Notes under the pieces: generated by a model
What the model saw: the letters and a program-made list of their open reading frames with translations, nothing else
Told to the model about the DNA's origin: nothing
Databases searched by the model: none
Origin: Clostridia bacterium
Lineage (GTDB): Bacteria > Bacillota > Clostridia > TANB77 > CAG-465
DNA length: 64,000 bases
Direction of reading: 5' to 3'
Assembly: GCA_900772475.1 (NCBI GenBank)
Contig: CAAHEI010000085.1
Location: 3,125 to 67,124 of the forward strand
Translations under genes and position numbers: made by a program
Part shown: positions 18,069 through 41,033 of the stretch, piece by piece
Layout: each line of letters opens with the position of its first letter
Numbering within the stretch: position 1 is the stretch's first letter

Positions 18069-18074
18069 AATTGC

Positions 18075-23296: not shown

Positions 23297-23341
23297 GTTT
23301 TTTTCCATATTTTTCAAGCTTTTACCAAAAAATAGCAAAAA

Positions 23342-23363
23342 ATATCAGGCATTTGCCTGATAT
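23342..23363 (-). terminator. Rho-independent terminator that closes the pilus-like operon
   Basis: 10-bp stem ATATCAGGCA / TGCCTGATAT with a 2-nt loop, then TTTTTTGCTATTTTTT on the minus strand. It lies 16 nt after the stop of the 1199-aa gene. Confidence 0.8.
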
Positions 23364-23378
23364 TTTAATATATTTTTA

Positions 23379-26300
23379 TTAGTCAAAATCATTTGCCGCT
23401 CTATTATCTAAATCAAATAATGCAACTGTACCTTTTACTTCTCCATACTTAGCATTAGAATTTGTATCATTTACAGTCCAAGTTCCCTTTTCCAACTGAA
23501 TACTTAAATCATCTGCTTTTTTTCCAGGTGTACTAAATCCAAGATATCCTTCATAATCCCATTGAGTAGTATTGGTATTTGGATCTGCTTTTTTATCATT
23601 AGAATTATAACTAATCTTGTTTTCTCTTCCATTGGAACTTTCACAACTAACAATTTCAAATTTAACTCCAACATAACCATCTGTTAATGGTTTTGAAACA
23701 TTTGAGCCCTCCACAGCGATGGTTGAATTTGGTAATTTAAATTCACCATACCAAGATTGTATAAAATTGTTGTCTGACGAACTCATCATCTTACTACTTA
23801 AAACAAAATAATCGCTACTTCCAACTGTAAGTGGTTCTAATTGACTTGACATTGTATCAAGATTTGAAGTTACCCCTGAATTTGATTTTGTCCTATATCC
23901 ATCATTTGGTTTGAAATAAATTGTATAATTGCTTCCAACAAATTTTGTATATTTTCCTGAAGAATTTTTATAGTATAAATTAATATTTGGTTTATACGTT
24001 TCACCATCTTTTGAAATATAATAGTATTTTGGTGTAATTCTTACTTCTTTTTTCGAACTATTTGCATCGTTTAAGTCTTCCTTTGATTTATCAAAGAAAC
24101 CGCTTGTTTTTAAATCAAAGCTTATTCTATACCCCATTTTAGGTGCATTTACATATGATATATTTGTATTTTTATATGGTCCAAGTGGAAGTATTGTTTT
24201 TGCAGCAGCTGACGAAGAAATTGTAAGCCCTTCTCTGTCTTCTAAAGTATTCACATCACTTGAATATATACTATATTTTTTTACTCCAGAAAAATATTCA
24301 ATTCCAGTTAAATCGTTTACACCTTGTTCATTTTTCCTAAATACTGATTTAAAATCAATATCTGAACAATCCGTAACTTTAAAATCATAAATTCTTCCTA
24401 AGTTTGTAACTTCATTATCGCTCTTAGCAAAATAATAAGCATCATTATACATTGTTAAATTACTATATGCTCGTGCATCATGAACCTTGTAATTAGCATA
24501 ATTTATTCCTCTTTCACAATAGTTTCTCCTTACTGGGAAAGTCTCATATTGTCCGTTTATATTAACTTTGAAACTATTATTATTTTTTAAGCCAATATAT
24601 GTATATTCATTAGCAGAAGTAATTAGATTTTTTGATTCTCTATTTAAAACTTTCTGTTTTAGCCAATTATTATTTTCAATAGGCATATTATTTGACGAAG
24701 CTATTAAAGATATTTTTCTTGTGTCACTTGTATTTTCAATTATACTATTTTGATTTATGTTACCACTGACTGTATTTCCAGCTTTTGCCTTGAATTCTCT
24801 TGTATCCTTACTTAATACAATAACTGTACCATATGGAATTTCCTCTCCAACGTTTTTAGTTATTTCTTGAATTTGACCACCACTCGTAAATGAATATAAT
24901 TTTTCATAATTTGTATCATTAGTCTTTACTACATTTATATCAAAAATTAAGTAATACTTATCTATATATTCAGTATATTTATGATTTTTGTATGCATCGC
25001 CTGTTGGTTCACTAATTTTAAGAGTAAAGTCTGCATTTTTCTGAATCACTGATGTATTATTTGTTCCAACTGAATGGTCAACAATTCCACTAGATTCAAC
25101 TTTAACCTTTTCAACTTTAATTGGGTTATATACAATTACCTTAGATTCATTCTTCGTATTTGTAGAAATTTTAGAACCTGAATAACTTTTAGTTAAAACA
25201 TTGTATTTTTGATAATTTGCTGTAATTTTTGGTATTCGAAGTCCATTATATCTATTTTCAGGTACTTTATAACCAGTCTCAAAATCATTTTTTTCAGTCT
25301 TTTTCTCTGCAACAGTTTTCAAATCAGATTTTGAAGGAAAATTCTTAACTTCCTTATATTTTTCCAATTCTGCATTTATAGAATCTACATTTTTAGCTGT
25401 AAATTCCTTTGTCGAATTTCCCTCTAGTAACGTCCACTTATCATTTGCACCCCCAAATATTTTTCCTACATCACCACTATTATCGCTAATATTACCAGAA
25501 ATTAATTTGTTTACATCAAAATTTTTAGCCTTGTATTTTAGAACTTTTCCTTCTATTTTATATTCATATTTTAAAGCTATAAATTTAACTTTATTTGCGA
25601 TTAAATATGGTGTTATATTTTCATTCGTTGGAGTATATTGCATTTGACAATCATCTGTTTTTGAACCATCAGATACTGTTTTAATTCCACTTTCAGGTGT
25701 ATTCCCACCTCCATCTGGATTATCAGGATCATCCGGTGGAATATTCACCTTTTTATACTTGAATTCTATTACAGTGACCTTACTTGTATCTCCAGCTGTT
25801 ATATTAACTGTATCCTTAATATTACTCTTAGCCTTAGACAAATTCTTATGTGCCTCTTCATATGATGTACTTGTACTAACTTTTACTCCTGTAAGCTCAT
25901 AATATTTTGCCCTATCTACTATTGTAAGATATCTACTAACAATTAATTTGTCTCCTGAATCCACCTCATAATACTCAGGATAAACTGAACTATGCTTATT
26001 ATTTGATGAAAATTTATTATTTTTTAATTCTTCAAGATTTCCACTACCACCTCTATCTAATACTTCTGAGTCATTATGACCTATGTCATTTCCTTTTTCA
26101 TCAATATGTCTTACATATACTTTTGAATTTGTGTTAACCACATTTTTTGGTAATAAAAGAATATTGTCATAATAATTTAAAAATGACATTGGTGCTTGAT
26201 AAACAGGGGATCCGGTCAACCCAAATAATTCTGGCAGATCCTTCTCATCATCATTTTCTGCAGCTGTTAAATAACCTACCTCTTTTTTGTCTTCTTTATC

Positions 26301-26978
26301 TATATCATAAACAGAACGTGTGTTTAAATAATATTTATCATAAGAATAACCTATTGGTTGTGAAATATAATATTTATAACAATCTCCTTTAATCTTACTT
26401 GTCCCCAATTTACTTTTTATTTTTTTAATATAATTTTCTGAAATCTGATTTTCATTTAAAGATACATATTTTTTATTTTTTTCGACTACTTGAATTGTTT
26501 CTCTTCTTGCATATCTTGCAAACTCCACGTATTTAATTTTCTTCAAGTCTTCTTCATCTTTATGTGAAACATTGGTTCTTTTTGAATCACCTTTTATGCT
26601 GCCTTTCATGTATCCATATTTACCATTTCCATTATCATCATATTTTGAAAAGGGCTCTGTGTGAACAACAAATGAATACGTTCTAATTGTACCCCATTCT
26701 TTTTCCCAACCAGCTTTAATATTATCACCAAATGGCTTTACAAATGATTCGCTTCCATCATAATATACCCATTCATTACCCTCAGTTGATTTGCGGCTGT
26801 TAACCCACTTTAGCCATGAACCTGTTTCTGCTCCTATACTTGATATAAACACAATATTCTTTCCCTCTGCTGTGCCCTTTATCTCTATATCCTTTGCAAA
26901 TATATATGTATTACATGTTAGGAAAAGAAAAACAAAGGATATTAATATAAATAATCCTTTTTTTAAATGTTTTTTCAT
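23379..26978 (-). CDS. Large secreted protein (1199 aa), unknown function; last gene of the pilus-like operon
   Basis: Signal peptide MKKHLKKGLFILISFVFLFLTCNTYIFA. It has no C-terminal anchor. There is an internal PPDDPDNPDGGGNTPESG linker. One segment (VYVRHIDEKGNDIG...VTVIEFKYKK) resembles MucBP-type beta modules. Confidence 0.5.
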   Translation of the reverse strand: MKKHLKKGLFILISFVFLFLTCNTYIFAKDIEIKGTAEGKNIVFISSIGAETGSWLKWVNSRKSTEGNEWVYYDGSESFVKPFGDNIKAGWEKEWGTIRTYSFVVHTEPFSKYDDNGNGKYGYMKGSIKGDSKRTNVSHKDEEDLKKIKYVEFARYARRETIQVVEKNKKYVSLNENQISENYIKKIKSKLGTSKIKGDCYKYYISQPIGYSYDKYYLNTRSVYDIDKEDKKEVGYLTAAENDDEKDLPELFGLTGSPVYQAPMSFLNYYDNILLLPKNVVNTNSKVYVRHIDEKGNDIGHNDSEVLDRGGSGNLEELKNNKFSSNNKHSSVYPEYYEVDSGDKLIVSRYLTIVDRAKYYELTGVKVSTSTSYEEAHKNLSKAKSNIKDTVNITAGDTSKVTVIEFKYKKVNIPPDDPDNPDGGGNTPESGIKTVSDGSKTDDCQMQYTPTNENITPYLIANKVKFIALKYEYKIEGKVLKYKAKNFDVNKLISGNISDNSGDVGKIFGGANDKWTLLEGNSTKEFTAKNVDSINAELEKYKEVKNFPSKSDLKTVAEKKTEKNDFETGYKVPENRYNGLRIPKITANYQKYNVLTKSYSGSKISTNTKNESKVIVYNPIKVEKVKVESSGIVDHSVGTNNTSVIQKNADFTLKISEPTGDAYKNHKYTEYIDKYYLIFDINVVKTNDTNYEKLYSFTSGGQIQEITKNVGEEIPYGTVIVLSKDTREFKAKAGNTVSGNINQNSIIENTSDTRKISLIASSNNMPIENNNWLKQKVLNRESKNLITSANEYTYIGLKNNNSFKVNINGQYETFPVRRNYCERGINYANYKVHDARAYSNLTMYNDAYYFAKSDNEVTNLGRIYDFKVTDCSDIDFKSVFRKNEQGVNDLTGIEYFSGVKKYSIYSSDVNTLEDREGLTISSSAAAKTILPLGPYKNTNISYVNAPKMGYRISFDLKTSGFFDKSKEDLNDANSSKKEVRITPKYYYISKDGETYKPNINLYYKNSSGKYTKFVGSNYTIYFKPNDGYRTKSNSGVTSNLDTMSSQLEPLTVGSSDYFVLSSKMMSSSDNNFIQSWYGEFKLPNSTIAVEGSNVSKPLTDGYVGVKFEIVSCESSNGRENKISYNSNDKKADPNTNTTQWDYEGYLGFSTPGKKADDLSIQLEKGTWTVNDTNSNAKYGEVKGTVALFDLDNRAANDFD

Positions 26979-26993
26979 TTTTTCCTCCTTTCA

Positions 26994-28454
26994 TTAAAAT
27001 TCTAATTTAATACTTCCTGCAATCCAATTCTTTATTGAACCATTTGAAATGCTAAGGTTTAAATCTTCATCCATTGATTCTCCCATTGGTACATCTAAGA
27101 TCATTTTTGAGGTGTTAGTGTCATATTGAGTTTCAAGCTCTAAATTATCGCCAAAAAATAAATTTTTGTCTGTATAGCAACCTGAAAAATCAACTTCCAC
27201 TATAGTCCTTACTCTATAATTTCTTCCATCGTAATATACTGCTGGTAAAGCTACTTTTGCGTTTCCTTTTAAAACAATTTTATTATCTTTTACATATTGT
27301 ACATACTCTTTTACTTTTTCTTTGTCAACTCCATATAACATATATGGTAAAATGTCAGCTGCAAACTTATCAGTATTTATTGTTGTGTAATCAACATTTA
27401 ATATTGTGTTAAAATATTGTTCAACATAATTAGAAATCTGAAAATAAAATTCTTTCTTTTCTGAATACACACTTTTTGCATTTTCATAACTATTTTTATC
27501 ATAAATATAGTCTTCCTTTTCATACACACTCTTATCTACATCAGATAATGTATATGGATACTGATCTTTATTTGAAGGCATTTTATCTTCATTTATATTT
27601 ACTTTTGCATCTTCTATTGTTATTGTGTTGTATTTTACAAGGAAGTTTGAAATAATTTCATTCATTTGTCCTTTAAATATTTTTGAATCACCATTTATTT
27701 TCTTTTTATTTATAGTGATTATCTCGTTTGCAATCATATCTTCTATTGCAATTTTTTCATCAGGTTTGTATTTGTCTATATCTTTTACTTTAAGATCAAC
27801 TGCTGAATTTACCTCTTTTTCAAGTATCTTTGTTTTTGCATTTACAAAATAACGTATTACCTCAATATATGTGGCTTTTTCATCTGCGTTATCTTTTGTT
27901 ACATCTGCCTCTCCTATTATTCCTCTATATTTTGCATATTCAACCCACATTGCATTATTGTAATTTTCTTCGGGTTCTCCAGCAAATCCTGATATATCGT
28001 TTGTGTTAAATACAGTTGCAAGTACCATTTTAACAGCTTCTGATTTTGTTATACTCTCTCCTGTTTTTGCACTTTGGTTATCATAAACCTTATCAAAACC
28101 ATAATTTTTCATTGTTTCTTCTAAGCCAAAATATGGTTTGTATTTGTTATATTTTACTAATGATACAATACCAAATATAGCTAGTCCAACTAATATAACT
28201 AATGCAACGAGAATTACAATTGTAATTCTTGACTTTATTGCTTTTTTATCTAATTTTTTCTTTTCTTTTTTATTTCCAGGTTCTTTGCTCTTTTGATATG
28301 ATGGTATAATTTTTTGTTTCTCTACTTGCTTTTCTTCTTCTTTTGGCTTATTTATTTTATTTGTATCTTCATTTACGTTATCTATACTATTTGTAGTCTT
28401 TTTAAGCTTTTTTTCCTTTTTTGTCTTAATTTTATCATCATGGTTTTCTTTCAT
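26994..28454 (-). CDS. Bitopic membrane protein with an ~85-aa Lys/Glu-rich cytoplasmic N-terminus and a large extracellular domain
   Basis: 486 aa with a single TM helix (ITIVILVALVILVGLAIFGIVSLV) after a K-rich low-complexity region. No family was recognised. Confidence 0.45.
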   Translation of the reverse strand: MKENHDDKIKTKKEKKLKKTTNSIDNVNEDTNKINKPKEEEKQVEKQKIIPSYQKSKEPGNKKEKKKLDKKAIKSRITIVILVALVILVGLAIFGIVSLVKYNKYKPYFGLEETMKNYGFDKVYDNQSAKTGESITKSEAVKMVLATVFNTNDISGFAGEPEENYNNAMWVEYAKYRGIIGEADVTKDNADEKATYIEVIRYFVNAKTKILEKEVNSAVDLKVKDIDKYKPDEKIAIEDMIANEIITINKKKINGDSKIFKGQMNEIISNFLVKYNTITIEDAKVNINEDKMPSNKDQYPYTLSDVDKSVYEKEDYIYDKNSYENAKSVYSEKKEFYFQISNYVEQYFNTILNVDYTTINTDKFAADILPYMLYGVDKEKVKEYVQYVKDNKIVLKGNAKVALPAVYYDGRNYRVRTIVEVDFSGCYTDKNLFFGDNLELETQYDTNTSKMILDVPMGESMDEDLNLSISNGSIKNWIAGSIKLEF

Positions 28455-28487
28455 TTACTTCACCCCTTATATATTTTATACAACACA

Positions 28488-29717
28488 TTATGGATTACAA
28501 ATAGGACAAGGATAAAATCCTTCCAATGTAATATATGTATTTCCTGTTTTATATACAGCCCTTACTGATGCTGCTTGTTGCTTTGTAAATAAATATCCTG
28601 GTGTAATATTATTATGTGTAGATACTCTATACTCTGGACAATTAACATCTTTGTGATATAAATTCATTATATATTTTGAGTTTTTATTTGCTATATCATC
28701 TGTTTTTGGTATTGTTAAATAATAACGTGTTATTTCTGTTAGTTTTGATGTACTATATGCTCTAGTGTTTAAATACCTATTTCCTATAGAGATACCTTGA
28801 ACAAGAGCCATTATACCTACATTTTTTATTTGACTTTCCATTTCCCCTTCTTCTAATGTTGGAAATACAAAATTATATTTAATACCAGCATTACTTGCAT
28901 AAATATTGTTATTATTTGTTGCAAATTGCATTTCACTTTCTATTGCATTTATTATAACTGACTTTCTTACTTCTTGTAATTTTTTTATAGTATCCTTTAA
29001 ACAATCTTTTTTAGATTGTACATTTGGTTGTGTATTTGAAAATAATTTGTAATTATTCTTGGTATCAGTTAAGTAAAAACCTGAAACCTCAATATCTTCT
29101 TTTTTTCCATTTATTACTTCATATCCTCTATGAGTAACATAGTCATCCATTGTAAACTCAATTAAGTGATATGATTGAAGAGAGGATTCTTTGGCATCAT
29201 CACGTTTTTCGGAAAATGTTGCTCTATAACCATTTGTACTATCATAATATATGTAATATTCATAAGTATAATATTTCTTTGGCTTTAATGAATGTCTTAC
29301 TACTTTTTGACCATCAAGTGAATCATCTTCAAATGATTCTATAGATGAAACCTGTACACCGTTATAGTCGATTACAGCAATTGCAGGTATAAAATACTGC
29401 AAATAATTTTCTGCATCTTTATTTCCCTTTATTCCAAAATTATTATACATCGAATTTAAAAAGGTATCAACTGCTACTTGGGAATTAACACTAATTTTGT
29501 TATTTGATACACCTGAATATCCATAATCAATTTCAGAGTCTGAATTTTCAACTTCCTTCATTTGATCAGAAGCATCATTAAGTGATGTACTAATAACCTT
29601 TTTGTAATACATTTCTTGCTCCTCTGCTTTTATTGTAAAAGACACATTAACATATACTATAATTATTATTGGAAGAGTAACTCCTATAAATATTAAAGCA
29701 AAATCTGTAAGTTTCAT
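28488..29717 (-). CDS. Pilin-like/pseudopilin-like protein (409 aa) with an N-terminal hydrophobic helix and a C-terminal Cys cluster
   Basis: N-terminus MKLTDFALIFIGVTLPIIIIVYVNV. The C-terminus contains VNCPEYR ... FYPCPICNP. Confidence 0.4.
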   Translation of the reverse strand: MKLTDFALIFIGVTLPIIIIVYVNVSFTIKAEEQEMYYKKVISTSLNDASDQMKEVENSDSEIDYGYSGVSNNKISVNSQVAVDTFLNSMYNNFGIKGNKDAENYLQYFIPAIAVIDYNGVQVSSIESFEDDSLDGQKVVRHSLKPKKYYTYEYYIYYDSTNGYRATFSEKRDDAKESSLQSYHLIEFTMDDYVTHRGYEVINGKKEDIEVSGFYLTDTKNNYKLFSNTQPNVQSKKDCLKDTIKKLQEVRKSVIINAIESEMQFATNNNNIYASNAGIKYNFVFPTLEEGEMESQIKNVGIMALVQGISIGNRYLNTRAYSTSKLTEITRYYLTIPKTDDIANKNSKYIMNLYHKDVNCPEYRVSTHNNITPGYLFTKQQAASVRAVYKTGNTYITLEGFYPCPICNP

Positions 29718-29732
29718 CTATTCACCTCATTT

Positions 29733-31184
29733 CTACATACCAATTACCCTTGATTGAATCAAAGTTAAATCCTCATCATCAACTTTACCATCTTGGTTCA
29801 TATCTACTCTTTTTTTCTCATCTTCACTAAGACTTAGAGTATTTGCAATATACCTTTGTAACAAAACTAGATCATTAATGTTAACCTTAAAGTCATTATT
29901 TACATCTCCTAATATATATCCAAAATTAACTATTTCCTTTAAGTAATCTACATCAATTTGTGAAATAACACCATCACCATTGATATCTGCTGCTTTCTTT
30001 TGTATTTCAGTAAATGTAACTTCATTGTTTATTTTTCTTGTAATTAAGCTATAATCATCATCTGTTATTTTAAAATCTTGATTAACATCTCCTGTTATAT
30101 AACTATTTTGTACATATTCTCCGACATATTTTTTATCTATTTCATCTATATTTCCATCCTTGTTAATATCATAAGTCTCTTTTTCAGAATCTGTAAGAGT
30201 TCCTGTACCATCAATGTATTTTTGTATTTTATCTAAGTCTTCTGATTTAAATTTTCTTTCTTGTTCATCTGGATTTCCAATTTTTAATATAATTGTCGTT
30301 GTACCTGACCTATATCCAAGTGCATCTATAGCATACACCTCAATTTTATATTTTATTCCATCTTCAAAGAAACCTATATCTTTTTCCAAACTAGTACCTT
30401 CTGTTGTCTCTTTTGTAGATGTTGCATTATTACTAAGATTAGTTATTTTCCATTTATATTTTGAAATACTGTTAGCTACATCTGAATCTCCACTACTAAA
30501 TGCAGTAGATTTTGCCTTTATTGTTTTGTTTATAAATTCTGATTTAGGTAATGTTTTTTCTTCGTTATTAGTTAAAGTTTCACTATTAAAAGATATAACT
30601 GGTGCTCCTGGTGCTTGCATATGTCCCTTATATGTTGCATCAACATTTTTCCAAGCATTGTTTTTTATAATGCCTCCATATTCAACTGAAATTCTATCCT
30701 TTTTTGATGCGGGAATAATTGTATTAAACAATGATCCTGCTAGCGTCATATTACTATTTTTAACTCTAACATATATTTCGTCCTTAGCGTTTAATCTATA
30801 TATATTATTTTTAATTGTTTTTTCCATTAAACCACTGTCTATAGTATTTGATTCAATAGAATTAAAAATATCATTGCTATAATCTATATAACTATCTTCA
30901 GTATATACATCATTACTACCCTCAGGTAATAAAACCTTTCTATGAGCCTCAACTTGAATATCATATACATTACCAGTATTTGCAAGATCATTTACAAATT
31001 TGTTATACATATCTTGATCAATATATCCATTATTCATTACCTGATCTGCAAACGTTGAAGTTGCTTTTAAAACCAAGTTATATGACATATCATCCTGTCT
31101 CTCAAAAAAATTATATAAAGGGAAAATTACTATTAGAAGCACTAACAGAATTATAGTTATTATTATACTTAAATTATCTTTCAT
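29733..31184 (-). CDS. Pilin-like protein (483 aa) with an Ig/PKD-like module and tandem type-I dockerin-like modules. It is a paralogue of the 32237-33025 product.
   Basis: The N-terminus MKDNLSIIITIILLVLLIVIFPLYNFFERQDDMSYNLVLKATSTFADQV..GYIDQDMYNKF...TGNVYDI parallels the 262-aa paralogue. The C-terminal third carries the F-hand pairs GDVNQDFKITDDDYSLI / DINGDGVISQIDVDYL and GDVNNDFKVNINDLVLLQRYI / DMNQDGKVDDEDLTLIQ. Confidence 0.55.
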   Translation of the reverse strand: MKDNLSIIITIILLVLLIVIFPLYNFFERQDDMSYNLVLKATSTFADQVMNNGYIDQDMYNKFVNDLANTGNVYDIQVEAHRKVLLPEGSNDVYTEDSYIDYSNDIFNSIESNTIDSGLMEKTIKNNIYRLNAKDEIYVRVKNSNMTLAGSLFNTIIPASKKDRISVEYGGIIKNNAWKNVDATYKGHMQAPGAPVISFNSETLTNNEEKTLPKSEFINKTIKAKSTAFSSGDSDVANSISKYKWKITNLSNNATSTKETTEGTSLEKDIGFFEDGIKYKIEVYAIDALGYRSGTTTIILKIGNPDEQERKFKSEDLDKIQKYIDGTGTLTDSEKETYDINKDGNIDEIDKKYVGEYVQNSYITGDVNQDFKITDDDYSLITRKINNEVTFTEIQKKAADINGDGVISQIDVDYLKEIVNFGYILGDVNNDFKVNINDLVLLQRYIANTLSLSEDEKKRVDMNQDGKVDDEDLTLIQSRVIGM

Positions 31185-31218
31185 ACACTAAAAATTCCCT
31201 CCTTTTATTTTTAAGATT

Positions 31219-31704
31219 TTATTTTTTACACCTTATCTTTATATATACAGTTTTAGTATTTGGATTTTCTGCCTCATACTCTAAATAGAATTTATTGTAC
31301 CTTCTTAGCTTTTCCTCCACTTGACTATTAGTCAAGTTTTTACTTTCTTCTTCTTTTCCTAAACATATATTTTCTCTTTCAGTTTCAAGTACAATATTAA
31401 CATCATATTTTACATCTGCATTATTATTTGATTGTCCTCCATATAAATCCTTTTTTATATAGTTAAAATAATATGATAGTACATCTTCTCTTGTTAAAGG
31501 TAAAAGTTGAGTATCACCATCATACATTTCTGTTCCATCACTTACTGTATTTATAATTGATCCACCAAGGCCTTGTGAATATTCATAGGCTGAATTTGCA
31601 TATCTATTAACACCTAAAAACAACATTATGGATAAACTCAAAGCAATTACAAATATAAATACATAAGTTGCAGTATATAACAAAGTATTAGTTGATTCAT
31701 TCAT
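31219..31704 (-). CDS. Small pilin-like protein (161 aa)
   Basis: Short polar N-terminus, then a hydrophobic helix (MNESTNTLLYTATYVFIFVIALSLSIMLFLGV), then a soluble domain. Confidence 0.4.
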   Translation of the reverse strand: MNESTNTLLYTATYVFIFVIALSLSIMLFLGVNRYANSAYEYSQGLGGSIINTVSDGTEMYDGDTQLLPLTREDVLSYYFNYIKKDLYGGQSNNNADVKYDVNIVLETERENICLGKEEESKNLTNSQVEEKLRRYNKFYLEYEAENPNTKTVYIKIRCKK

Positions 31705-31726
31705 TATATCATCGCTCCATTCTACT

Positions 31727-32203: not shown

Positions 32204-32236
32204 TGGTATGATTCACCTCCAAATCAATTTTATTAT

Positions 32237-33025: not shown

Positions 33026-33042
33026 ATTCCCTCCTTATTTTT

Positions 33043-33531
33043 TTATTGTCCCTCTATTTCAATTAAAGTTCCAACCTTATCTCCGGTCAAATGTTGGTTT
33101 TCTGTACATTCAATTTTAAATTTTTGATCTAACAATATGTTATTCATAACATATTTGTAACTTGCCTCATCATGATTAATATTAAATCTTGAGTATGTAG
33201 CTGAAGCTTTTGATTTATTTTCCTCATATACATTAATTACCCTCATTACCCTAATATTAACTTCCACATCATCTTTATCATAAAAATAATTAATAAGATT
33301 CTTAACATCTGCACCCGTAATATATGAATTTCCAGTAACATTTTCTGTTCCAGAAACCAAAAGATCTTGAATACTTTGTTCATAATTTGCAGCAAAATCT
33401 TGGCCACGCCCAACATTAGATGCCAACTGTTTTGCTGAGTTATAATACATTAAAACTGCTGAAATTGTAGCAACCGCAAGTAAAGTGCTTACACCTATTA
33501 CAATAGCTCTAATTGGAGCACTTTCGTCCAT
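33043..33531 (-). CDS. Small pilin-like protein (162 aa)
   Basis: The N-terminus is MDESAPIRA-IVIGVSTLLAVATISAVLMYY. A GAGGTGG SD lies 7 nt upstream. Confidence 0.45.
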   Translation of the reverse strand: MDESAPIRAIVIGVSTLLAVATISAVLMYYNSAKQLASNVGRGQDFAANYEQSIQDLLVSGTENVTGNSYITGADVKNLINYFYDKDDVEVNIRVMRVINVYEENKSKASATYSRFNINHDEASYKYVMNNILLDQKFKIECTENQHLTGDKVGTLIEIEGQ

Positions 33532-33648
33532 GATTTTACCACCTCACTTTTAATTTATATATATAATATACACTTTAAGAAATTAATTTACCTTGATTAT
33601 ACACATTTTCCACATTTAATTAATTTTTTAAACTATATATTAGTAGTA

Positions 33649-33686
33649 AAGGTATATAACTATATGTGTATATAATTATATACCTT
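33649..33686 (-). terminator. Stem-loop just downstream of the candidate major pilin gene; possibly a partial terminator or a stabiliser
   Basis: 11-bp perfect stem AAGGTATATAA / TTATATACCTT with a 16-nt loop, 13 nt after the stop. The T-tail on the minus strand is weak. Confidence 0.35.
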
Positions 33687-33698
33687 TAAAAAAAGTCT

Positions 33699-34085
33699 TT
33701 AATTCCACTCTATAGTAACAGTCCCTGCATCTATATTTTGTGTAACTGTTCCTGTATACATTTTGGTAGCTGTAGCTGAAGTTGCAGAATTAATGGCCGC
33801 TGTATCATTTTTTACTGCCCCATCAATCTTAATTGTAATACTAGATGCATCATCTCTATTTTTTAATTGAACAGCTGCTGTTCTAACTTGTGCACCTGAC
33901 ATTTTTTTACCATTATATTGTTCAAAAAGATCATTTTGTAAACTTGCAGATATACCATTTACTTGTGCTTGACCTTTATTAAGTAGGTTTTGACCCATAC
34001 CAGTTATTAACATTACGGCTGCAATTATAATGATTGTGATGAAAAGACCAACACCAATCATAATAGCTTTTTGTGCGTTATCCAT
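33699..34085 (-). CDS. Candidate major pilin (128 aa)
   Basis: The N-terminus is MDNAQKA-IMIGVGLFITIIIIAAVMLITG, followed by a small Ala/Thr/Gly-rich domain. This is the first and smallest pilin-like gene after the platform gene. It is flanked by longer intergenic spacers with stem-loops and has a strong SD (AAAGGGGGA). Confidence 0.5.
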   Translation of the reverse strand: MDNAQKAIMIGVGLFITIIIIAAVMLITGMGQNLLNKGQAQVNGISASLQNDLFEQYNGKKMSGAQVRTAAVQLKNRDDASSITIKIDGAVKNDTAAINSATSATATKMYTGTVTQNIDAGTVTIEWN

Positions 34086-34161
34086 AATTTATATATCCCC
34101 CTTTATACATATATATAATATCCACCTAAATGGTGTGATATCCAATTTAATTGTTGCCTTA

Positions 34162-36222
34162 TTAGAAAGACATTTTTGTAAAATAATTCATCATTTGCAT
34201 TATTGACACAATCATAAGTGGAGCAACTAAATATCCACCTATAAGTAGTACCATTGGTGTAAATCCAAGTACTTTACCAATAGCTGTTTTCTTTTTAATT
34301 AACCTTTCGTTTCCTTCTTTTCTTCTTTCATAGAAGAAAGCTCTTTCTGTTTCTAGTTCATCAAATGCATCCCTTATTGGTATTCTTTCAACAGCTGATT
34401 GTAATTGTTCTACAATTCTTTGAAAATCCTTATATGGCACAGCTTCTTTTAAATCTTCTAATGCTTCATATGCACCGGATTCATAGTTGTTAAGACATGT
34501 TGCAATTGGTTCTTTAAATGCATAAGAAAATCTACATAACCATTCAAGAATTGTTTGTACATCAATTCTATCTATATACATAAGCATAAGAATAATTGAC
34601 TGAAATTGCATTATTTCATTTTCTTTTTCCATTTCACGTATTTTATTACGTATAAACAACATAACTGATGGTGCATAGTATGCAATAAATGCTAATATAA
34701 ACGATGTAAGTACTTGCCAGAATTTTATATATGAATTTTTTATACTTTGTATTTTGTTATATACTCTTGTTACCTCATCTGCATCAGTCTTACCTGTTAC
34801 AGGATCGGTAAATTCCATTTCTAATTGTTCCTTAGTTACATTTTTGTTTTTATATTTATCAATGTATGTTTTATCTCTATCATTTATTGCTTGAGCAGCT
34901 TTTTCTTGCTGTTCAGTAAGTTGTCCAAATGATAAAAATTCATCACTTATTTTTTCATAAGTAGCCTTTACATCTATACGTGTTATATTAAACATTAAAG
35001 TAAATGCTAATATAAATGTGACAAAGGCTGCAGTTATTTTATTTACATATAACCATTCAATTGTAAGATATGAATTGGTATTTTTAATAAGTATTGTTTC
35101 ATTTCTATTTTTTCTTGTATTAGGTCTTGATTTAAATGCATCAACTATTTGTTTAATAATAGGTATCTTGTATAATTTGTCCTGCCACCTTACACTAGCA
35201 ACTCTATCAAATTTGATTTGTTCTGAATCTTCTTTTACAATTCTTAACATCAAATATGATACAAATATTGATATTATAATAAGTGATTGCATTATAAAAC
35301 CAAAACTACTGTTATAGAAGTTTGAGAGTGCCGGGAAGTTAGATTCAGCCCAAGCTTGTAATGGCTTAATACATACAAGTGGTACTACTGCAATTACATT
35401 TAAACTTCTAAACATATAATTTATTTTATCTTGTTTTAATATTTCAAGATAAATTTCTTGTAAAATATTGTTTAAATTTTTTAGATAAACTGATGTACCA
35501 TCAATTTTTCTATCACCCAAGTCATAAGTTAAATATGATATACCAGCAAATAATTTTAGAAATCTATTTGGTGCACTATCATAATACTTTTCTAACTCTA
35601 CCTCTGGATTATCCGAAATTATTGCTTCTTTAATACGTCTAAGTTGAGGTCCTATCTCTTTATCTCCAAGCTCATCTATGACTGTAGCAAATGCTTCATC
35701 AATCATCCCATGTTCATGAAATGCATGTCTTATTGTTGTAAATGCATCTGGCATTTGTCTTAATATTTTGTTTGAGACAGACGTTATACCAAGATCAATC
35801 ATTTTTTCTGCTATAATTAGAACTCCAACTATAACAATTAAAGTCATATATAAATCATTTACTAAATTTATTAATACAAATAATGATATGAATATGAATA
35901 TTACTGCAAATAACATATATTTACCTGTTCTTTTTCTTAGCTCATATTCTGTATAATCATTTGTCATTTCAAGTTTTAATCTTGTCTTTTTTGTATAATA
36001 CTTTATTATTGGCATTTTTACAAAAGTCATATATACAATTTGATATAGTCTATCTAAAATATCTTTAAAACTAGACTTATTTTTAACCATCAAATTATCT
36101 TTTGCAAAAAGTGCTGAATTTTTCTTGTACCTATGTTTTATAACTTTTAAATACAAAAGTAAAACGAGTATCCCAATTAAAGAAAAAGCTAGTAAACCTA
36201 TTGCAACATATGTAATATTCAT
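34162..36222 (-). CDS. Polytopic inner-membrane platform protein, fused TadB/TadC-like (T2SS-F family)
   Basis: About 686 aa counted from the ATG at 36220-36222 (SD GGAGGTGA 7 nt upstream); the ORF track extends to 36243. Two blocks of TM helices are each preceded by a cytoplasmic helical domain. The gene lies directly after the ATPase gene. Confidence 0.55.
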   Translation of the reverse strand: MNITYVAIGLLAFSLIGILVLLLYLKVIKHRYKKNSALFAKDNLMVKNKSSFKDILDRLYQIVYMTFVKMPIIKYYTKKTRLKLEMTNDYTEYELRKRTGKYMLFAVIFIFISLFVLINLVNDLYMTLIVIVGVLIIAEKMIDLGITSVSNKILRQMPDAFTTIRHAFHEHGMIDEAFATVIDELGDKEIGPQLRRIKEAIISDNPEVELEKYYDSAPNRFLKLFAGISYLTYDLGDRKIDGTSVYLKNLNNILQEIYLEILKQDKINYMFRSLNVIAVVPLVCIKPLQAWAESNFPALSNFYNSSFGFIMQSLIIISIFVSYLMLRIVKEDSEQIKFDRVASVRWQDKLYKIPIIKQIVDAFKSRPNTRKNRNETILIKNTNSYLTIEWLYVNKITAAFVTFILAFTLMFNITRIDVKATYEKISDEFLSFGQLTEQQEKAAQAINDRDKTYIDKYKNKNVTKEQLEMEFTDPVTGKTDADEVTRVYNKIQSIKNSYIKFWQVLTSFILAFIAYYAPSVMLFIRNKIREMEKENEIMQFQSIILMLMYIDRIDVQTILEWLCRFSYAFKEPIATCLNNYESGAYEALEDLKEAVPYKDFQRIVEQLQSAVERIPIRDAFDELETERAFFYERRKEGNERLIKKKTAIGKVLGFTPMVLLIGGYLVAPLMIVSIMQMMNYFTKMSF

Positions 36223-36226
36223 ACTA

Positions 36227-38125
36227 TCACCTCCAAGCTGCATCTATGAAGTTATCAAAACTTCTTACATCTTCTGGTGACATATTATCTCTCATTGATT
36301 TTATATTTTCTTCACTTATTGGGTTTACAAATACATATTTTCCATCTTGCCATTCAACAATATTTCTATATGTATAGTTACTTGTTTGTGTCATATGTTC
36401 AAAATACTCGACTGCATTGTCCATAAAGCTATCAAGTTTTTTGTCCATATCTTTTACTTTCCTATAATCATTATTATATGAGAATTTTTTCTCAAGAGGT
36501 ATACATTCTGTTATTCTTTCAATATATCTTGTACCATCTGTTCCTCTTTTTAAGTGAATATCAAAGTTTATAACAGATACAACTTGTACTTCAGCAACAT
36601 CTTCAGATTGGAACATACCTATTTTTAAAAGTGAGTTTCTAAGTGCAGTTATTAAGTTTGGAAAGGTTTTAGCATGGTGAGTAAATAGTGTAAATTTAGA
36701 GGCAACCTGTGCCATTTGAATCATCCATGCAGCAACCGGATCAGTTGCAACCTCACCTAGTATGTTAACTCCACCATCAGTTTTCTTTTGAACGTCTAGA
36801 CCTTCCTGTCCATTTATAGTTTCAGTTTCTCTAAGTGACAAAATGTTGTGATAAGGATAAATTTTTCTTAAGTGTAACTCGAATGCTGTTTCCTGTACAC
36901 GAATTGTAATTGTTGGATATAAATATTTCATTATAGCCATTAGTAATGTTGTTTTACCACAACCCTGCTCACCAGTTATTGCTGTTACTCTTGCACCTCT
37001 AACTAAATATTTTAAAAGCTCAATTACATTTGCTTTATTTTCATGTATTAAAAGCTGTTCTGCAGAAATAAGTGTTGGAGGAGCAAATTTTCTTACGAAG
37101 AATGCCCATGATTCTGAAAAGTTTGGACGTAAAACAACAATACGAGAACCATCTTTCATTTCATTTATTTTATAACCAACAGACTCTGATAATTGTCCTG
37201 GGTTATTATATTTATATATATTCTGACACACTCTTTTTAATTCAGATTCACTACCAAATGATAAGAAAGATAAGTAAGTTGATTTACCTTTGTAGAATAT
37301 CCAAACACTATCGTATGACATTGGAATTTTTCTTTCTTTCATTTGTTCTAAGTAATCTTCCATACCAGAAACTTGGTCTAAAAATGAAGGTGGAATACCA
37401 GATACACCACCTGATACACCGTCTATATTCATATCACGAATATCATCTACAACACTATATCCTTTGTATCCTTGATATACTCTTTGCACTACAATTTCTA
37501 ACTTATCTTCAAAAGATAATGTATCAGGAGTCACTTCATTTTGAAATATTTGATGTATTTCTGATGCAGTTATAACATAAGATGGAACTTCTGGGTCAAA
37601 CTCATATTTAGGAACATCAAGATTATATTTTGTTATAATCTCAGTTAAAGCCTCAGATTTATATTGCTTTTTATACAAGTGAAGCAATATTTCAAATTCA
37701 TCTTGTGGAGTTAACTCATCAAAATTATCAAATGAAATTGCATTACTTATATTTGAATTGTTTACTTTATATGTATTTCTTAACAAATCAAACATTAAAG
37801 TTTTTACATATTTTTTATCACTAGAATCCGCATATCCTGCACCTTTTAATGCCTTTTTTAATTCATATTTAACATTTTTTCTTCTTTCAAATTCTTCTTC
37901 AGAAAGTGCCAAATCATAAAGATTCATTCTTGTGATTTCATCAAATTGCTTCTTTATAAACGCCTGCATACTAGGAATACTATATTTTTCTCTTGCTCTT
38001 TCAAACTCTGAACGCTTATTATCATCATCAGGTCCGCCCTTTTTAATTTTATATACTATAAAACCTACAACAAACGCAACAAGTAGAACTATAAGCACAA
38101 TATTAAAAATAAATGCAACTGACAT
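36227..38125 (-). CDS. CpaF/TadA-family type II/IV secretion ATPase with an N-terminal transmembrane anchor
   Basis: 632 aa. Walker A is ITGEQGCGKTTLL, the Asp-box-like segment is RVQETAFEL, then ILGEV (catalytic Glu) and the His-box-like FTHHA. The N-terminus MSVAFIFNIVLIVLLVAFVVGFIVYKIKK is a predicted TM helix. Confidence 0.75.
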   Translation of the reverse strand: MSVAFIFNIVLIVLLVAFVVGFIVYKIKKGGPDDDNKRSEFERAREKYSIPSMQAFIKKQFDEITRMNLYDLALSEEEFERRKNVKYELKKALKGAGYADSSDKKYVKTLMFDLLRNTYKVNNSNISNAISFDNFDELTPQDEFEILLHLYKKQYKSEALTEIITKYNLDVPKYEFDPEVPSYVITASEIHQIFQNEVTPDTLSFEDKLEIVVQRVYQGYKGYSVVDDIRDMNIDGVSGGVSGIPPSFLDQVSGMEDYLEQMKERKIPMSYDSVWIFYKGKSTYLSFLSFGSESELKRVCQNIYKYNNPGQLSESVGYKINEMKDGSRIVVLRPNFSESWAFFVRKFAPPTLISAEQLLIHENKANVIELLKYLVRGARVTAITGEQGCGKTTLLMAIMKYLYPTITIRVQETAFELHLRKIYPYHNILSLRETETINGQEGLDVQKKTDGGVNILGEVATDPVAAWMIQMAQVASKFTLFTHHAKTFPNLITALRNSLLKIGMFQSEDVAEVQVVSVINFDIHLKRGTDGTRYIERITECIPLEKKFSYNNDYRKVKDMDKKLDSFMDNAVEYFEHMTQTSNYTYRNIVEWQDGKYVFVNPISEENIKSMRDNMSPEDVRSFDNFIDAAWR

Positions 38126-38163
38126 ATTTTCACCCCTCTTATTTTTTATCTTCCATTTTTATT

Positions 38164-38979
38164 CTAATTTTCCCTAATCTTAGCCATTTCTACAATTTGA
38201 TTTGCAATATTTAAAGTCTGAAATATAAAATTTCCGTTATAATCTTTTGGATCTGCATTTATATTTTTGTATAAGAAATCAACAACAGCACCTGAATTGC
38301 ACGCGTCTGCAAACATGTAATTATGTGGTACAGTAAATATTGGATCTTTTACCCTATACTTCCATTTAATATTCATTACATTATATTTCGATGATTGCTC
38401 ATAATCTGCAATTACAATTATTTTTTTCTTATCTTTTAGAATTTCGTTTGTTGATATAATATTAAAGAAATCACTAAATTTTACAGTATCCTGATTTATA
38501 ACACACACAACAATTTCTGCATCAGATATTGTTTCTTTAATAGTTTTTTTACTAAAATTTTTAGGCATGTCTATAAAAACTAAATCATATATTTCGTCTG
38601 CTTTTCTTGTAACATATGGAAGATTGTTTATAATTTGATTATATCCATCAATATCATCAGCATTCATTCCATATAAGACGTCTAATCTATCTTTTAACAC
38701 TGGCTTAGCATAATTTTGTATAGAATCTGCAGTAAGTTTATTACTTGAAACAAGTCTAATCAAAGCATTTATTCCTATATTTGAACTTTCGAAGACTCCA
38801 CTTTGTTTAAGCTCGTCATATGGTGTAAAAGAAGATTCCATTTTACATGAATGAAAATTTGCTTGCATAAGTAAACTAGAAACTTTATGAGTCATCCCCA
38901 TTAATGTACTTACTGCAACTGCAGCATGAGTGTTTCCTGTCATACTTTCATATGGGCTCCAAAATACAACTCTTGACAT
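38164..38979 (-). CDS. ParA/MinD-fold (CpaE/TadZ-like) protein with a degenerate P-loop
   Basis: 271 aa. VVFWSPYESMTGNTHAAVAVSTLMG occupies the place of the xKGGxGKT P-loop. A Walker B-like segment, YDLVFIDMP, is retained. Confidence 0.45.
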   Translation of the reverse strand: MSRVVFWSPYESMTGNTHAAVAVSTLMGMTHKVSSLLMQANFHSCKMESSFTPYDELKQSGVFESSNIGINALIRLVSSNKLTADSIQNYAKPVLKDRLDVLYGMNADDIDGYNQIINNLPYVTRKADEIYDLVFIDMPKNFSKKTIKETISDAEIVVCVINQDTVKFSDFFNIISTNEILKDKKKIIVIADYEQSSKYNVMNIKWKYRVKDPIFTVPHNYMFADACNSGAVVDFLYKNINADPKDYNGNFIFQTLNIANQIVEMAKIREN

Positions 38980-38981
38980 TA

Positions 38982-39695
38982 TTACTTCCTCCTTTTTATT
39001 TGATTTAATACTTTTTTAGCATTAACATCTCCCATTATTTCTGCCGCAAGATCTGCAAGAATTGCCATATACAATTTAGAATGTTTTTTAGTTTCTATAC
39101 TTCCACTAAATTGCGAATCTATATCAGCAAGTCTATCTTGTTCGTCTAATGGAACTTCATAATCTGGTTCTTTCCATTTTACTTCATATTCCTTTATTTT
39201 TTGGTCAAAATAATCGTCTGCAGCCCTTGATATGTATGATTTATACAATACTTTTGTCATTACAAGTTCTGAATCACCTTCAGTATCAAATACTTTCATT
39301 GCCTTTATTATTTCCTTATTTTTCTCTATGGAAATAACACTAGTATCAATAAAAAAGTACTTCTTATCAACACCTTTAGTCCTAAATAATTCATAAGATC
39401 TAGCACTATCCATATCAATAATTACAAAGTCATATTTATTTATATCAACACCTTGTTCACCAGCGTAGCTTTCAACATCACGCATACTATCAAACCCAAC
39501 AGCAAAATCTATATCGCTATATTGAGTTATATATGCCCTGCCCATATTGCTTAGGGCAGGAACAATATATTTTAGTTTTCTATCTAGTGTTGCATCAACT
39601 ACTAGTACTGATTTATCCATTACATTAATTGCTTTTGCAAGATTCATAGCAAAGTCGTATTTATCAACATATCCAATTAATCCAATTACTTGCAT
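38982..39695 (-). CDS. ParA/MinD-fold (CpaE/TadZ-like) protein with a degenerate P-loop
   Basis: 237 aa. VIGLIGYVDKYDFAMNLAKAI occupies the place of the P-loop. SVLVVDAT and YDFVIIDMD are retained. Confidence 0.45.
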   Translation of the reverse strand: MQVIGLIGYVDKYDFAMNLAKAINVMDKSVLVVDATLDRKLKYIVPALSNMGRAYITQYSDIDFAVGFDSMRDVESYAGEQGVDINKYDFVIIDMDSARSYELFRTKGVDKKYFFIDTSVISIEKNKEIIKAMKVFDTEGDSELVMTKVLYKSYISRAADDYFDQKIKEYEVKWKEPDYEVPLDEQDRLADIDSQFSGSIETKKHSKLYMAILADLAAEIMGDVNAKKVLNQIKRRK

Positions 39696-39745
39696 TTAAT
39701 TTCCTCCTTGTATAAATAATCTTGTATAAAATTTTAAATTGTTTT

Positions 39746-40783
39746 TTATTCTTCAGTAGTTCCATTTAATAAAGCTGTTCTTTGATTTTGTTGAGTTGTT
39801 ATAGAAGTTTGTGCTCCACTAACTATATTACTATAATTATCTTCGTTATCAGATTTGTAACTACTTAATCCACTTTCAATTGTTCTTCTTGAATCTTCAC
39901 TTAATTTTTCTTTTGCTTGTGATAGAATATTTTCATTTGTTTTCATAAGATTCATAACTTGTGAATTTGGTTGGTAATTTTCTGAAACTCTAGTTGCTGC
40001 TGAAGCAAAGTTTTTATATTTTACAATTAAATCAAACATTTTCTCTGTAAACTCATCAGCATCTGCATCCTGTAAAGTATCTAGTTCTTTTTCAATTTCT
40101 TCAGAAACATATCCTTTAGCAGTTGTAGTTGCTTCTTCTGATAAATTTGTTTGTGATGTAGCATCTGTATATTTCGTTGCATATAATTTTGAACCTTGAT
40201 TTAAATATGAATCAACTGTTGCACTGCTAAGTAACAATCTTTCATCTTCAGCCATATTTATCCAAAATGTTTTTCCAACAATATTTTCAACTTTCTTTTG
40301 AGCTAAAACAACATAGTCAGTACCATTAGGAAACATTATTCTTATGTCAACATAATCTCCAATATTAAGATCAGTTGGCATAAGTACTGTATTTATTTCT
40401 TGAGATCTAACATCAGCCGCCACAATTTCAGATGTAACCATTGAATTTAGAACTGGTACATTAGCTGCAATATTATATTTTGCTACGCTTCCAACTATCT
40501 CATCTGTAGATTTTGCCGCACCATTTGGCACTGTGTTCTTATTTATATTTTTTGCAACTGTTACCATGTCATTTGTTATGACCTCACCTTGAATTATATC
40601 TCTTTTACATACAACAACATCCTGTGTGTATTTTTGATTATATCCTTTATTCACACCTTTTTCATAGCTCTTAATTGTACTAATAGACCACCATAATGTA
40701 AGTCCAATTCCAACAACACCAATGACGGCACCAATAACAATACCCTGCATCATTTTCCTCTTAATTTGACTCATTCCTATCAT
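39746..40783 (-). CDS. CpaB/RcpC-like pilus assembly protein (TM anchor plus SAF domain)
   Basis: The most plausible start is the ATG at 40781-40783, 9 nt after GGAGG; the ORF track extends to 40915. After a TM helix, the segment VVVCKRDIIQGEVITNDMVTV is SAF-like. It is followed by a beta-rich domain and an acidic/polar tail. Confidence 0.6.
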   Translation of the reverse strand: MIGMSQIKRKMMQGIVIGAVIGVVGIGLTLWWSISTIKSYEKGVNKGYNQKYTQDVVVCKRDIIQGEVITNDMVTVAKNINKNTVPNGAAKSTDEIVGSVAKYNIAANVPVLNSMVTSEIVAADVRSQEINTVLMPTDLNIGDYVDIRIMFPNGTDYVVLAQKKVENIVGKTFWINMAEDERLLLSSATVDSYLNQGSKLYATKYTDATSQTNLSEEATTTAKGYVSEEIEKELDTLQDADADEFTEKMFDLIVKYKNFASAATRVSENYQPNSQVMNLMKTNENILSQAKEKLSEDSRRTIESGLSSYKSDNEDNYSNIVSGAQTSITTQQNQRTALLNGTTEE

Positions 40784-40843
40784 ATGTTTCAACCTCCAAA
40801 TTATCTTTTTTACGTTATAATTAAAATATAACCTATCGTATCT

Positions 40844-40881
40844 AGTATATATTTTTATATAAAAAAAATCAACACGTTGAT
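40844..40881 (-). promoter_or_regulatory. Candidate promoter of the pilus-like operon, with a palindrome overlapping the -35
   Basis: The minus strand reads TTGATT (40867-40872), a 17-nt spacer, then TATACT (40844-40849). The perfect 6-2-6 palindrome ATCAACACGTTGAT (40868-40881) overlaps the -35. Confidence 0.4.
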
Positions 40882-40995
40882 AAAAAAATACATTTAAGAC
40901 ATTAAAATGAAACATATTTGAAATATAAATGAAATTATTATGAAACTTACATTTTTTTTAAACGTTTATTTCGACATTTATTTGCAAAAAACAGC

Positions 40996-41014: not shown

Positions 41015-41033
41015 ACCTTTACAATTTTGTAAA

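Follow-up and report, generated by a model that had tools for sequence, protein, structure and literature searches.

A Tad-like gene cluster of the order TANB77

In 2024, Kim et al. (Nat Commun 15:10726) reported a cluster of 10-14 genes for a Tad-like pilus in 122 of the 129 species of the clostridial order TANB77 (PMC11680825). On the basis of orthology, topology and structure, its products were annotated as CpaB, TadZ, CpaE, a TadA/CpaF with one transmembrane (TM) helix, a 693-aa TadC-like/TadB-like fusion and seven pilin-like proteins, and their lengths follow the pattern 358, 231, 280, 640, 693, 165, 170, 143, 146, 237, 178, 621 (PMC11680825). Here we describe a 17.5-kb operon that is the orthologue of this cluster, found in a 64-kb stretch of contig CAAHEI010000085.1 of a Clostridia bacterium (assembly GCA_900772475.1). 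This whole stretch is termed the window below, and coordinates refer to it unless another locus is named. The operon is identified as the orthologue because its genes agree in order and size with Table 1 of the published study, and because a group of related loci (L050-L078), gene-by-gene homologues of the window cluster whose lengths closely match the published pattern, forms an indirect bridge between the two. Gene order, the TM-anchored ATPase, the ~690-aa fusion, the seven pilin-like genes and a host among uncultured low-GC gut Clostridia are common to both, and the GC content of the window (~27%) is consistent with a TANB77 host. As for the differences, the window ATPase is ~61% identical to the subgroup that matches the reference of the paper, the window carries another set of pilin paralogues without the 143-aa signal-peptide protein of that subgroup, and it adds dockerin repeats in one pilin-like protein (g11) as well as two accessory genes (g13 and g14).

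The original prediction for this DNA had proposed a divergent, possibly undescribed branch of the type IV filament superfamily (TFF) in Clostridia. A divergent member of this superfamily it is, of Tad/CpaF type, as recognised through weak sequence, profile and structure signals; undescribed it is not, as a cluster with the same order, sizes and seven pilin-like genes had been published (PMC11680825). With both the cluster and its Tad-like annotation on record, the operon is not a new discovery. The published study is silent on a prepilin peptidase and on the N-terminal motif of the pilins, and outside TANB77 it mentions relatives only as homologues of protein 930 (PMC11680825). What is new here are the conserved pilin N-terminus, the negative searches for a peptidase in cis, the distant relatives including one set beside type IV secretion system (T4SS) genes, and the lineage specificity of g13 and g14.

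We consider it rather likely that the operon encodes a monoderm, secretin-less and deeply diverged Tad-like adhesive filament with modular minor subunits. By homology to Tad, the membrane-anchored, CpaF-like hexameric ATPase g4 would drive the fused TadB/TadC-like platform g5, which would pull g6 out of the membrane together with its paralogues g7, g9 and g10. Joined through their long hydrophobic N-terminal helices, these subunits would polymerise as a filament on the cell surface. The CpaB-like g1 and the ParA/TadZ-like g2 and g3 may scaffold or position the machine. Low-abundance minor subunits would be provided by g8, g11 and g12, whose variable C-terminal modules (here dockerins) could give gut adhesion or docking, and g13 and g14 would be lineage-specific add-ons.

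Compared with the Tad/Flp (type IVc) pili of Caulobacter crescentus and Aggregatibacter actinomycetemcomitans, the locus has in common a single ATPase of the CpaF/TadA type, a CpaB-type SAF protein, ParA-like, putative TadZ/CpaE proteins with degenerate P-loops, a probable TadB/TadC-like platform and several downstream minor pseudopilin-like genes. It differs in lacking a secretin, RcpB/C and TadD, as expected in a monoderm, and also in its fused platform, its membrane-anchored ATPase, TadZ-like proteins without the receiver-like domain, subunits that reach 120-190 aa and bear a globular head, as against the 40-60 aa of Flp, and the absence of the G/xxxxEY motif and of TadV from the window locus. 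Monoderm Tad systems, of which Eubacterium rectale TadZ is a further example, are likewise secretin-less, are often found on mobile elements and have a SAF protein, a ParA-like protein, an ATPase and two platform genes; however, they keep TadB and TadC as separate genes and carry small Flp-type pilins with ...G/A(L)T..E[YW] and TadE/DUF4320 proteins recognised by models. This comparison covered Micrococcus luteus (PMC4322843), Cutibacterium acnes plasmids (PMC5696575), plasmid loci of Thermoanaerobacterium and Streptomyces, and Bifidobacterium breve (PMC13170226). The window ATPase scores 30 bits against monoderm Tad and 25-38 bits against proteobacterial CpaF, and thus stands no closer to the former.

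A single long platform with two T2SSF-like halves is the usual state in archaeal type IV/Epd-like pili, and the short leader of the TANB77 pilins, with Lys at -2, Ala at -1 and no conserved Glu at +5, bears a resemblance to archaeal class III signal peptides. However, the window ATPase is much nearer to bacterial CpaF (E=1.4e-7) than to the archaeal GspE-like 2oap (E=0.033), the small -1 residue is not conserved in the distant relatives of the cluster, and a FlaK/PibD/EppA-type peptidase was not found in cis. Archaeal pili of this kind are the ancestors of Tad (PMC6668835).

The operon consists of 14 co-directional genes on the minus strand (23379-40783), here numbered g1 to g14 in the direction of transcription and bounded by two terminator-like hairpins. 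The hairpin of the upstream dac gene (40993-41017, minus strand) marks the 5′ boundary, and at the other end an intrinsic terminator-like hairpin with a 12-bp stem and a T-rich tail (23339-23366, minus strand) follows the 1199-aa gene, where a terminator had been anticipated. Counted by longest open reading frames (ORFs), the run extends over 23379-40915. The longest ORF of g1 spans 39746-40915, and its likely start is placed at ~40783 because the orthologues begin with MIGMSQIK; the longest frame of g5 is 34162-36243, and its 686 residues are counted from a Met preceded by a ribosome-binding site. Every gene listed in the original prediction exists in the order and size given, including six further pilin-like proteins of 158-483 aa (g7-g12) and a Lys-rich bitopic protein (g13). 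The intergenic gaps, described there as mostly 2-40 nt, are short indeed but range from 2 to 50 nt, the exceptions being g4 and g5, which overlap by 17 nt, and the two gaps that flank g6, of 76 nt on its upstream and 167 nt on its downstream side. The last of these contains a perfect, AT-rich 19-bp hairpin immediately after the g6 stop codon (33647-33688, minus strand; z = -3.6 for the 181-nt region), possibly an attenuator or an mRNA stabiliser that would set the ratio of major to minor subunits. In Pfam and NCBIfam searches with all 14 proteins, matches were limited to SAF, dockerin and sub-threshold ATPase and CpaB models.

To date, more than 7500 relatives of the ATPase are found in databases, with at least 513 matches among GTDB species representatives; the few annotated ones are named CpaF or ATPase of a type II secretion system (T2SS), type IV pilus or T4SS at NCBI, and the related records, which bear NCBI names such as ‘uncultured Clostridia bacterium’, Clostridium sp. 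CAG:1219 and UMGS1761, come from gut or animal gut. We compared 80 loci fetched from these at least 513 matches, each from a different species and all from uncultured gut Clostridia. The core g1-g5 is present in 77-80 of the 80 (g1 and g2 in 77 each, g3 in 79), followed by g11 (73), g8 (71) and g12 (61). Distant loci with an ATPase identity of 31-34% and a GC content of 30-43% show the same cluster architecture. Among the orthologous clusters, those further removed from the window terminate at g12, beyond which unrelated genes follow. A separate observation concerns the distant locus L088/L089, where the homologous cluster (7608-21040 of that locus) lies directly downstream of conjugative T4SS genes (1-4357) that encode a VirD4/TraG-like coupling protein, a TrbL_4 (TrbL/VirB6-like) protein, a TraC-like protein and a VirB4-like AAA_10 protein, and a resolvase lies downstream. 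Homologues of g1-g6, g8, g11 and g12 are all detectable there (E from 1e-89 to 2.5e-6), and their position beside T4SS genes is a hint that conjugative elements carry relatives of the system.

ATPase, platform and scaffold proteins

The CpaF/TadA-like secretion ATPase g4 (36227-38125, 632 aa) has an N-terminal TM anchor and ~250 extra residues. Its match to the solved Caulobacter CpaF (PDB 8rkd) covers residues 280-547 and brings Walker A (GEQGCGKTT), Walker B (ILGEV) and the His box (THHA) into register, the three motifs on which the original prediction had relied; VirB11, like 2oap, scores far worse than CpaF. Among NCBIfam models, the best is TIGR03819, ‘TadA family conjugal transfer-associated ATPase’ (1.9e-6, sub-threshold), and Pfam T2SSE likewise stays under its cut-off (0.0015). 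When phmmer was run against a 14-sequence reference set, CpaF/Tad ATPases were matched at 5e-13 to 6e-9 and no match to GspE was obtained. The ComGA model gave only E=0.019 and no ComG-type pilin signature was found, so that the locus does not qualify as a competence (ComG) pilus. On sequence grounds, the g4 family appears as a compact, deeply diverged clade and not as ordinary CpaF, since only 1149 relatives at E<=0.001 and 336 at E<=1e-30 were retrieved among 1.84 billion representative proteins. The membrane anchoring of the ATPase noted earlier is borne out and is a trait of the family: all 80 related loci encode an N-terminal TM anchor, as do 88 of the 101 representatives of full length.

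The polytopic protein g5 (34162-36222, 686 aa, 8 predicted TM segments) is probably a fused TadB/TadC-type platform, as had been proposed. Aligned by hhalign with ten TadB/TadC references drawn from five annotated plasmid Tad loci, each half matches end to end, the N-terminal one with E=1.6e-4 (score 39) and the C-terminal one with E=1.1e-5 (score 47), against scores of 11-23 for shuffled and reversed controls. The weak profile scores place a TadB-like half first and a TadC-like half second, which is opposite to Table 1 of the TANB77 study, where structural homology of the orthologous 693-aa fusion to TadC/TadB was reported (PMC11680825). PDB sequence and profile searches with g5 gave no match. 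In a Foldseek search with its AlphaFold2 (AF2) model, the cytoplasmic domains of EpsF, OutF and PilC were the sole sizeable local matches that superposed well (Foldseek prob 0.35-0.77, TM-score 0.53-0.59, rmsd ~3.8-4.4 A); these fold matches are suggestive at most, because the model, built from a shallow alignment, has a pLDDT of 50. A prepilin peptidase domain hidden in g5 was also considered and ruled out, as the protein has 8 TM segments and both halves are covered by the TadB/C alignments.

The first gene of the operon, g1 (39746-40783, 345 aa), encodes a CpaB-like protein with an N-terminal TM helix, a SAF domain and a long acidic/Ser-rich tail. Pfam SAF is matched at 8.6e-10 (39.5 bits vs a cut-off of 21), which bears out the SAF-like segment suspected earlier, and the CpaB model TIGR03177 at 1.5e-9 over its N-terminal 100 positions only (37.5 bits vs a cut-off of 71). 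The next two genes encode a ParA/MinD-like protein with the P-loop GYVDKY (g2, 38982-39695, 237 aa) and a second, ParA/TadZ-like protein in which the Walker A Lys is replaced (TGNT; g3, 38164-38979, 271 aa), both without the N-terminal receiver-like domain of TadZ/CpaE. Their assignment to the ParA/MinD fold agrees with the profile of the g2 family against MinD 4v02 (E=2.8e-4) and with the full-length hhalign alignment of the g3 family to five TadZ/CpaE references (E=2.4e-4, Prob 44%), in which it pairs with their ATPase domain; the g2 counterpart was called TadZ-like by structure (PMC11680825). The P-loops of all ParA-like proteins had been regarded as broken and unusual. This is true of the g3 family, where the Walker Lys is lost in most lineages, but the g2 family keeps a modified P-loop, GxxxK[TY], with invariant Gly8 and Lys12 and both Asp motifs. 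Neither is such degeneracy unusual, because the P-loops of reference TadZ/CpaE from ordinary Tad loci are equally degenerate.

A further ParA-like gene lies 2 kb downstream of the operon (19481-21256, minus strand). It encodes a Pfam-negative protein of 591 aa in which a linker rich in Pro, Lys and Glu joins a receiver-like domain at the N-terminus to a ParA-like domain at the C-terminus (GAPKSGTT), the two-domain TadZ/CpaE layout that is absent from g2 and g3, and it aligns with the g2 family at E=4.6e-4 (hhalign). A gene weakly similar to it precedes the homologous cluster in L088, and the 591-aa protein could be an unlinked component of the machine. Just downstream of this gene, a GGDEF diguanylate-cyclase-domain protein is encoded (18378-19451, minus strand); a cyclic di-GMP link between it and the pilus machine is speculative.

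Pilin-like subunits and lineage-specific additions

The candidate major subunit g6 (33699-34085, 128 aa) begins with MDNAQKA followed by a hydrophobic helix. In 78 loci, 170 ORFs downstream of the platform share the N-terminus M-[ED]-N-A-[SQ]-K-A-[LI]-[IML]-[IM]-[AG] and then ~20 hydrophobic residues, with Ala7 in 170/170 and Lys6 in 161/170. From one to five g6-type genes occur per locus, and the family counts 2618 database members, every named one of which is ‘hypothetical’; no Pfam family turned up among those listed or scanned. An AF2 model of g6 (84 sequences, pLDDT 79) predicts a helix over residues 2-57 and a small alpha/beta head, the ‘lollipop’ layout of pilins; the N-terminal helix plus globular head that a pilin-like protein calls for is present in this model. 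Two paralogues are g7 (33043-33531, 162 aa, MDESAPIRA and a helix) and g9 (31727-32203, 158 aa, MDYMSNKA and a helix), and g10 (31219-31704, 161 aa) is a diverged member of the same family (hhalign of the g10 and g6 families, E=3.8e-8, Prob 95%).

A second type is formed by the minor-pilin-like proteins g8 (32237-33025, 262 aa), with the N-terminal module FxLPLY...E+xDDxSY, and its paralogue g11 (29733-31184, 483 aa). The two families align at E=2.4e-43 (hhalign) through a common N-terminal module unlike the g6 type, and neither aligns significantly with TadE references. In g11, the minor-pilin-like module of ~175 aa is followed by a lineage-specific extension with three terminal dockerin type I repeats (Dockerin_1, 8e-31 across 3 stretches), in agreement with the dockerin-bearing pilin-like protein noted before; to our knowledge, a dockerin module on a pilin-like protein has not been described. 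These dockerins are one lineage-specific C-terminal addition: orthologues of g8, g11 and g12 range from ~163-165 to ~1240 aa (g11, 163 to ~1240 aa; g12, 303-876 aa) and combine a conserved N-terminal module with variable C-terminal modules. PilB and PilC of Streptococcus sanguinis are likewise built from a pilin-like N-terminal module and variable C-terminal adhesive modules, but, in contrast to the window proteins, they carry a canonical, Glu5-containing class III signal peptide and are PilD-dependent. The third pilin-like type is g12 (28488-29717, 409 aa), the last conserved gene, with a pilin-like N-terminus and a weak family match to TadE references (E=0.006). It is the positional orthologue of ‘pilin 938’, whose N-terminal 25% was reported as TadE/PilV-like by structure (PMC11680825).

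Beyond g12 come two genes without any Pfam match. The accessory g13 (26994-28454, 486 aa) encodes a bitopic protein with a Lys-rich N-terminus and one TM helix, and is present in 22 of the 80 loci, all in the subclade of the window. The secreted protein g14 (23379-26978, 1199 aa) has a signal peptide, and a g14-like protein follows g13 solely in this same subclade, wherever the flank reaches. Against its counterpart in locus L037 (16437-17162 of that locus), g14 is 62% identical over the first 242 residues, compared with 86-98% for the neighbouring operon proteins, and it is thus regarded as a fast-evolving surface protein.

Function, subunit maturation and genomic setting

Several observations weigh against a Tad-like filament. 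In any TANB77 organism no filament has been observed, the order being uncultured (PMC11680825). None of the 170 pilin-like ORFs has an acidic residue within the helix, Glu at +5 is absent, and the Flp-type G/xxxxEY motif was not found in the pilin-like N-termini, the last two as the original prediction had it. No Pfam pilin family was found among 84 g6-family members scanned, Foldseek of the g6 model against PDB returned no pilin-like match (best E=2.2), Pfam T2SSF matched 0 of 46 g5 family members scanned individually, and the g5 model is of the low confidence given above. Curated Tad-component models missed their cut-offs for every component except SAF. To these points is added the peptidase: no A24 signal was obtained from the 64-kb window or from the 80 related loci (+/-10 kb, ~20 kb each) with E. 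coli GspO as phmmer query, at the sensitivity of a single sequence, or with a GxGDxK scan of multi-TM frames. Pfam found no A24 peptidase among the multi-TM ORFs of the window either, its polytopic ORFs being a P-type ATPase, a bPH_2 protein, a split TauE and an ABC transporter, and the predicted absence from the window holds within the sensitivity of these searches. Peptidase_A24 is also missing from the precomputed Pfam lists of six distant loci, and none is annotated in five plasmid Tad loci, where annotation is incomplete.

The absence of the peptidase in cis is not unusual in itself, since it is treated as a ‘loner’ in the TFF and MSH loci are always without it (PMC6668835). In TANB77 pilins the helix is preceded by K-A, and in the distant relatives by K, Y, W or F (MATVKKI..., MGTFQKY..., MNSVPIKW..., MENITKF...); the latter N-termini do not fit A24 cleavage, because the small -1 residue that A24 needs is absent. 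Across the whole family, the conserved feature is a short N-terminus of the form MxNxxK. Class III signal peptides as defined by a small -1 residue, A24 cleavage and Glu at +5 are not recognised, since Glu at +5 is absent and the small -1 residue is not kept in the distant relatives. The subunits may mature through an A24 peptidase encoded elsewhere, or they may not be cleaved. Going further, the TANB77 cluster and its relatives might be a separate TFF clade whose subunits are assembled without prepilin-peptidase cleavage, with MxNxxK (MENASKA in TANB77) as the recognition element and no Glu+5 salt bridge, a proposal that we put forward tentatively and hold to be doubtful. Such a clade would also be marked by the TM-anchored CpaF-like ATPase, the fused platform, two receiver-less ParA-like proteins and subunits of 120-190 aa, and some of its members would travel on conjugative elements.

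The same facts could be read as showing no filament at all: the pilin-like proteins would be bitopic membrane proteins with an uncleaved N-terminal helix, and the ATPase and platform would do another membrane task such as the assembly of a surface protein layer. The lack of a detectable A24 peptidase in cis over 86 loci, the K, Y, W or F before the helix in distant relatives, the missing Glu+5 and the g6 model without a fold match to pilins all fit this reading, yet we judge it unlikely. The locus holds a full Tad-like core (CpaB, two TadZ-like proteins, CpaF-like and TadB/C-like) for which no non-filament role is known, the g6 model has a helix-plus-head lollipop architecture of pilin-like size, and tandem paralogues together with a hairpin after the gene are typical of loci for major and minor pilins. 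Still less probable, in our view, is a pseudopilus-type machine, in which a short, non-protruding piston of the pilin-like proteins would push or present g13, g14 and the dockerin-bearing g11 across the wall in the manner of a T2SS. It is true that g13 and g14 are co-transcribed up to a shared terminator, that in several related loci of this subclade g13 is followed by a g14-like protein and that many minor-pilin-like genes stand beside a single clear major one. However, display or secretion of the large terminal proteins, which had been suggested as the use of the machine, finds no support as a general function, given that g13 is found in 22/80 loci only, g14-like proteins are confined to the subclade of the window and distant orthologous clusters stop at g12 with unrelated genes beyond. 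Moreover, g14 has its own Sec-type signal peptide and therefore needs no dedicated exporter, and specialised secretion arose rarely and late within the TFF (PMC6668835).

A pilus associated with DNA transfer, which would act in mating-pair formation or in the uptake of DNA instead of attaching the cell to host or substrate, has other grounds. The L088/L089 cluster lies directly downstream of VirD4-, TrbL/VirB6- and VirB4-like conjugation genes, the best NCBIfam model of the ATPase is named after conjugal transfer, plasmid-borne monoderm Tad-like loci adjoin FtsK/SpoIIIE and relaxase genes, and in Micrococcus luteus natural transformation is mediated by pili of the Flp type (PMC4322843). We nevertheless give it little credence, for the window cluster is chromosomal with housekeeping neighbours and with dac syntenic in 40 of the 80 loci, conjugation genes adjoin one of the six distant loci examined, and, among the window ORFs covered by the scan, neither ComEA/ComEC nor T4SS genes could be recognised. 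The cluster is also a single-copy trait of 122 of 129 TANB77 species (PMC11680825), which indicates vertical inheritance. That the window operon itself is conjugative was rejected on account of its housekeeping neighbours.

Upstream of the operon, a 9.6-kb integrative element (41826-51438) splits the D-Ala-D-Ala carboxypeptidase gene dac (Peptidase_S11/PBP5_C) at about residue 150 into two fragments (41034-41825 and 51439-51895). Its cargo comprises two large serine recombinases, RepA_N, DUF3846, RadC, an ArdC N-terminal domain, an Rv2525c-like glycoside hydrolase and a peptidoglycan-binding protein. In related genomes an uninterrupted dac lies directly upstream of the operon. The operon was considered as a part of this mobile element, which was rejected as the element is a separate insertion in dac. 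The N-terminal part of dac shifts its reading frame near residue 108 (~51584-51588), and the 98%-related genome L037 likewise has dac ORFs of 108 aa and 307 aa (1134-2367 of that locus). The frame change may reflect a pseudogene, a programmed frameshift or an assembly error common to both. Downstream of the operon (21852-23168, minus strand), a 438-aa surface protein is encoded with a signal peptide, an EF-hand/dockerin-like loop, leucine-rich-repeat-like repeats seen by eye, ~150 residues of (E/V)PT repeats, a C-terminal hydrophobic anchor and a basic tail. A perfect TTGACA-17-TATAAT promoter-like site with TG (23268-23296) stands upstream of its gene, and the (E/V)PT repeat lifts the local GC content to 0.34 and flips the GC skew. 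The split TauE mentioned above is a pair of 128- and 129-aa ORFs (53152-53538 and 53541-53930, minus strand) with 4 TM segments each, which match the N- and C-terminal halves of the TauE/SafE sulfite-exporter model.

For the biology of the TFF, the interest of the cluster lies in the maturation of its subunits with or without cleavage, in the membrane tethering of its ATPase and in the ligands of the variable C-terminal modules such as the dockerins. TANB77 is an uncultured and prevalent order of the human gut whose abundance correlates with the response to checkpoint-blockade therapy, and protein 938 of the published cluster was reported to activate dendritic cells via TLR4 (PMC11680825). Given this correlation and the activity of the g12 orthologue, the workings of the machine are of medical interest.

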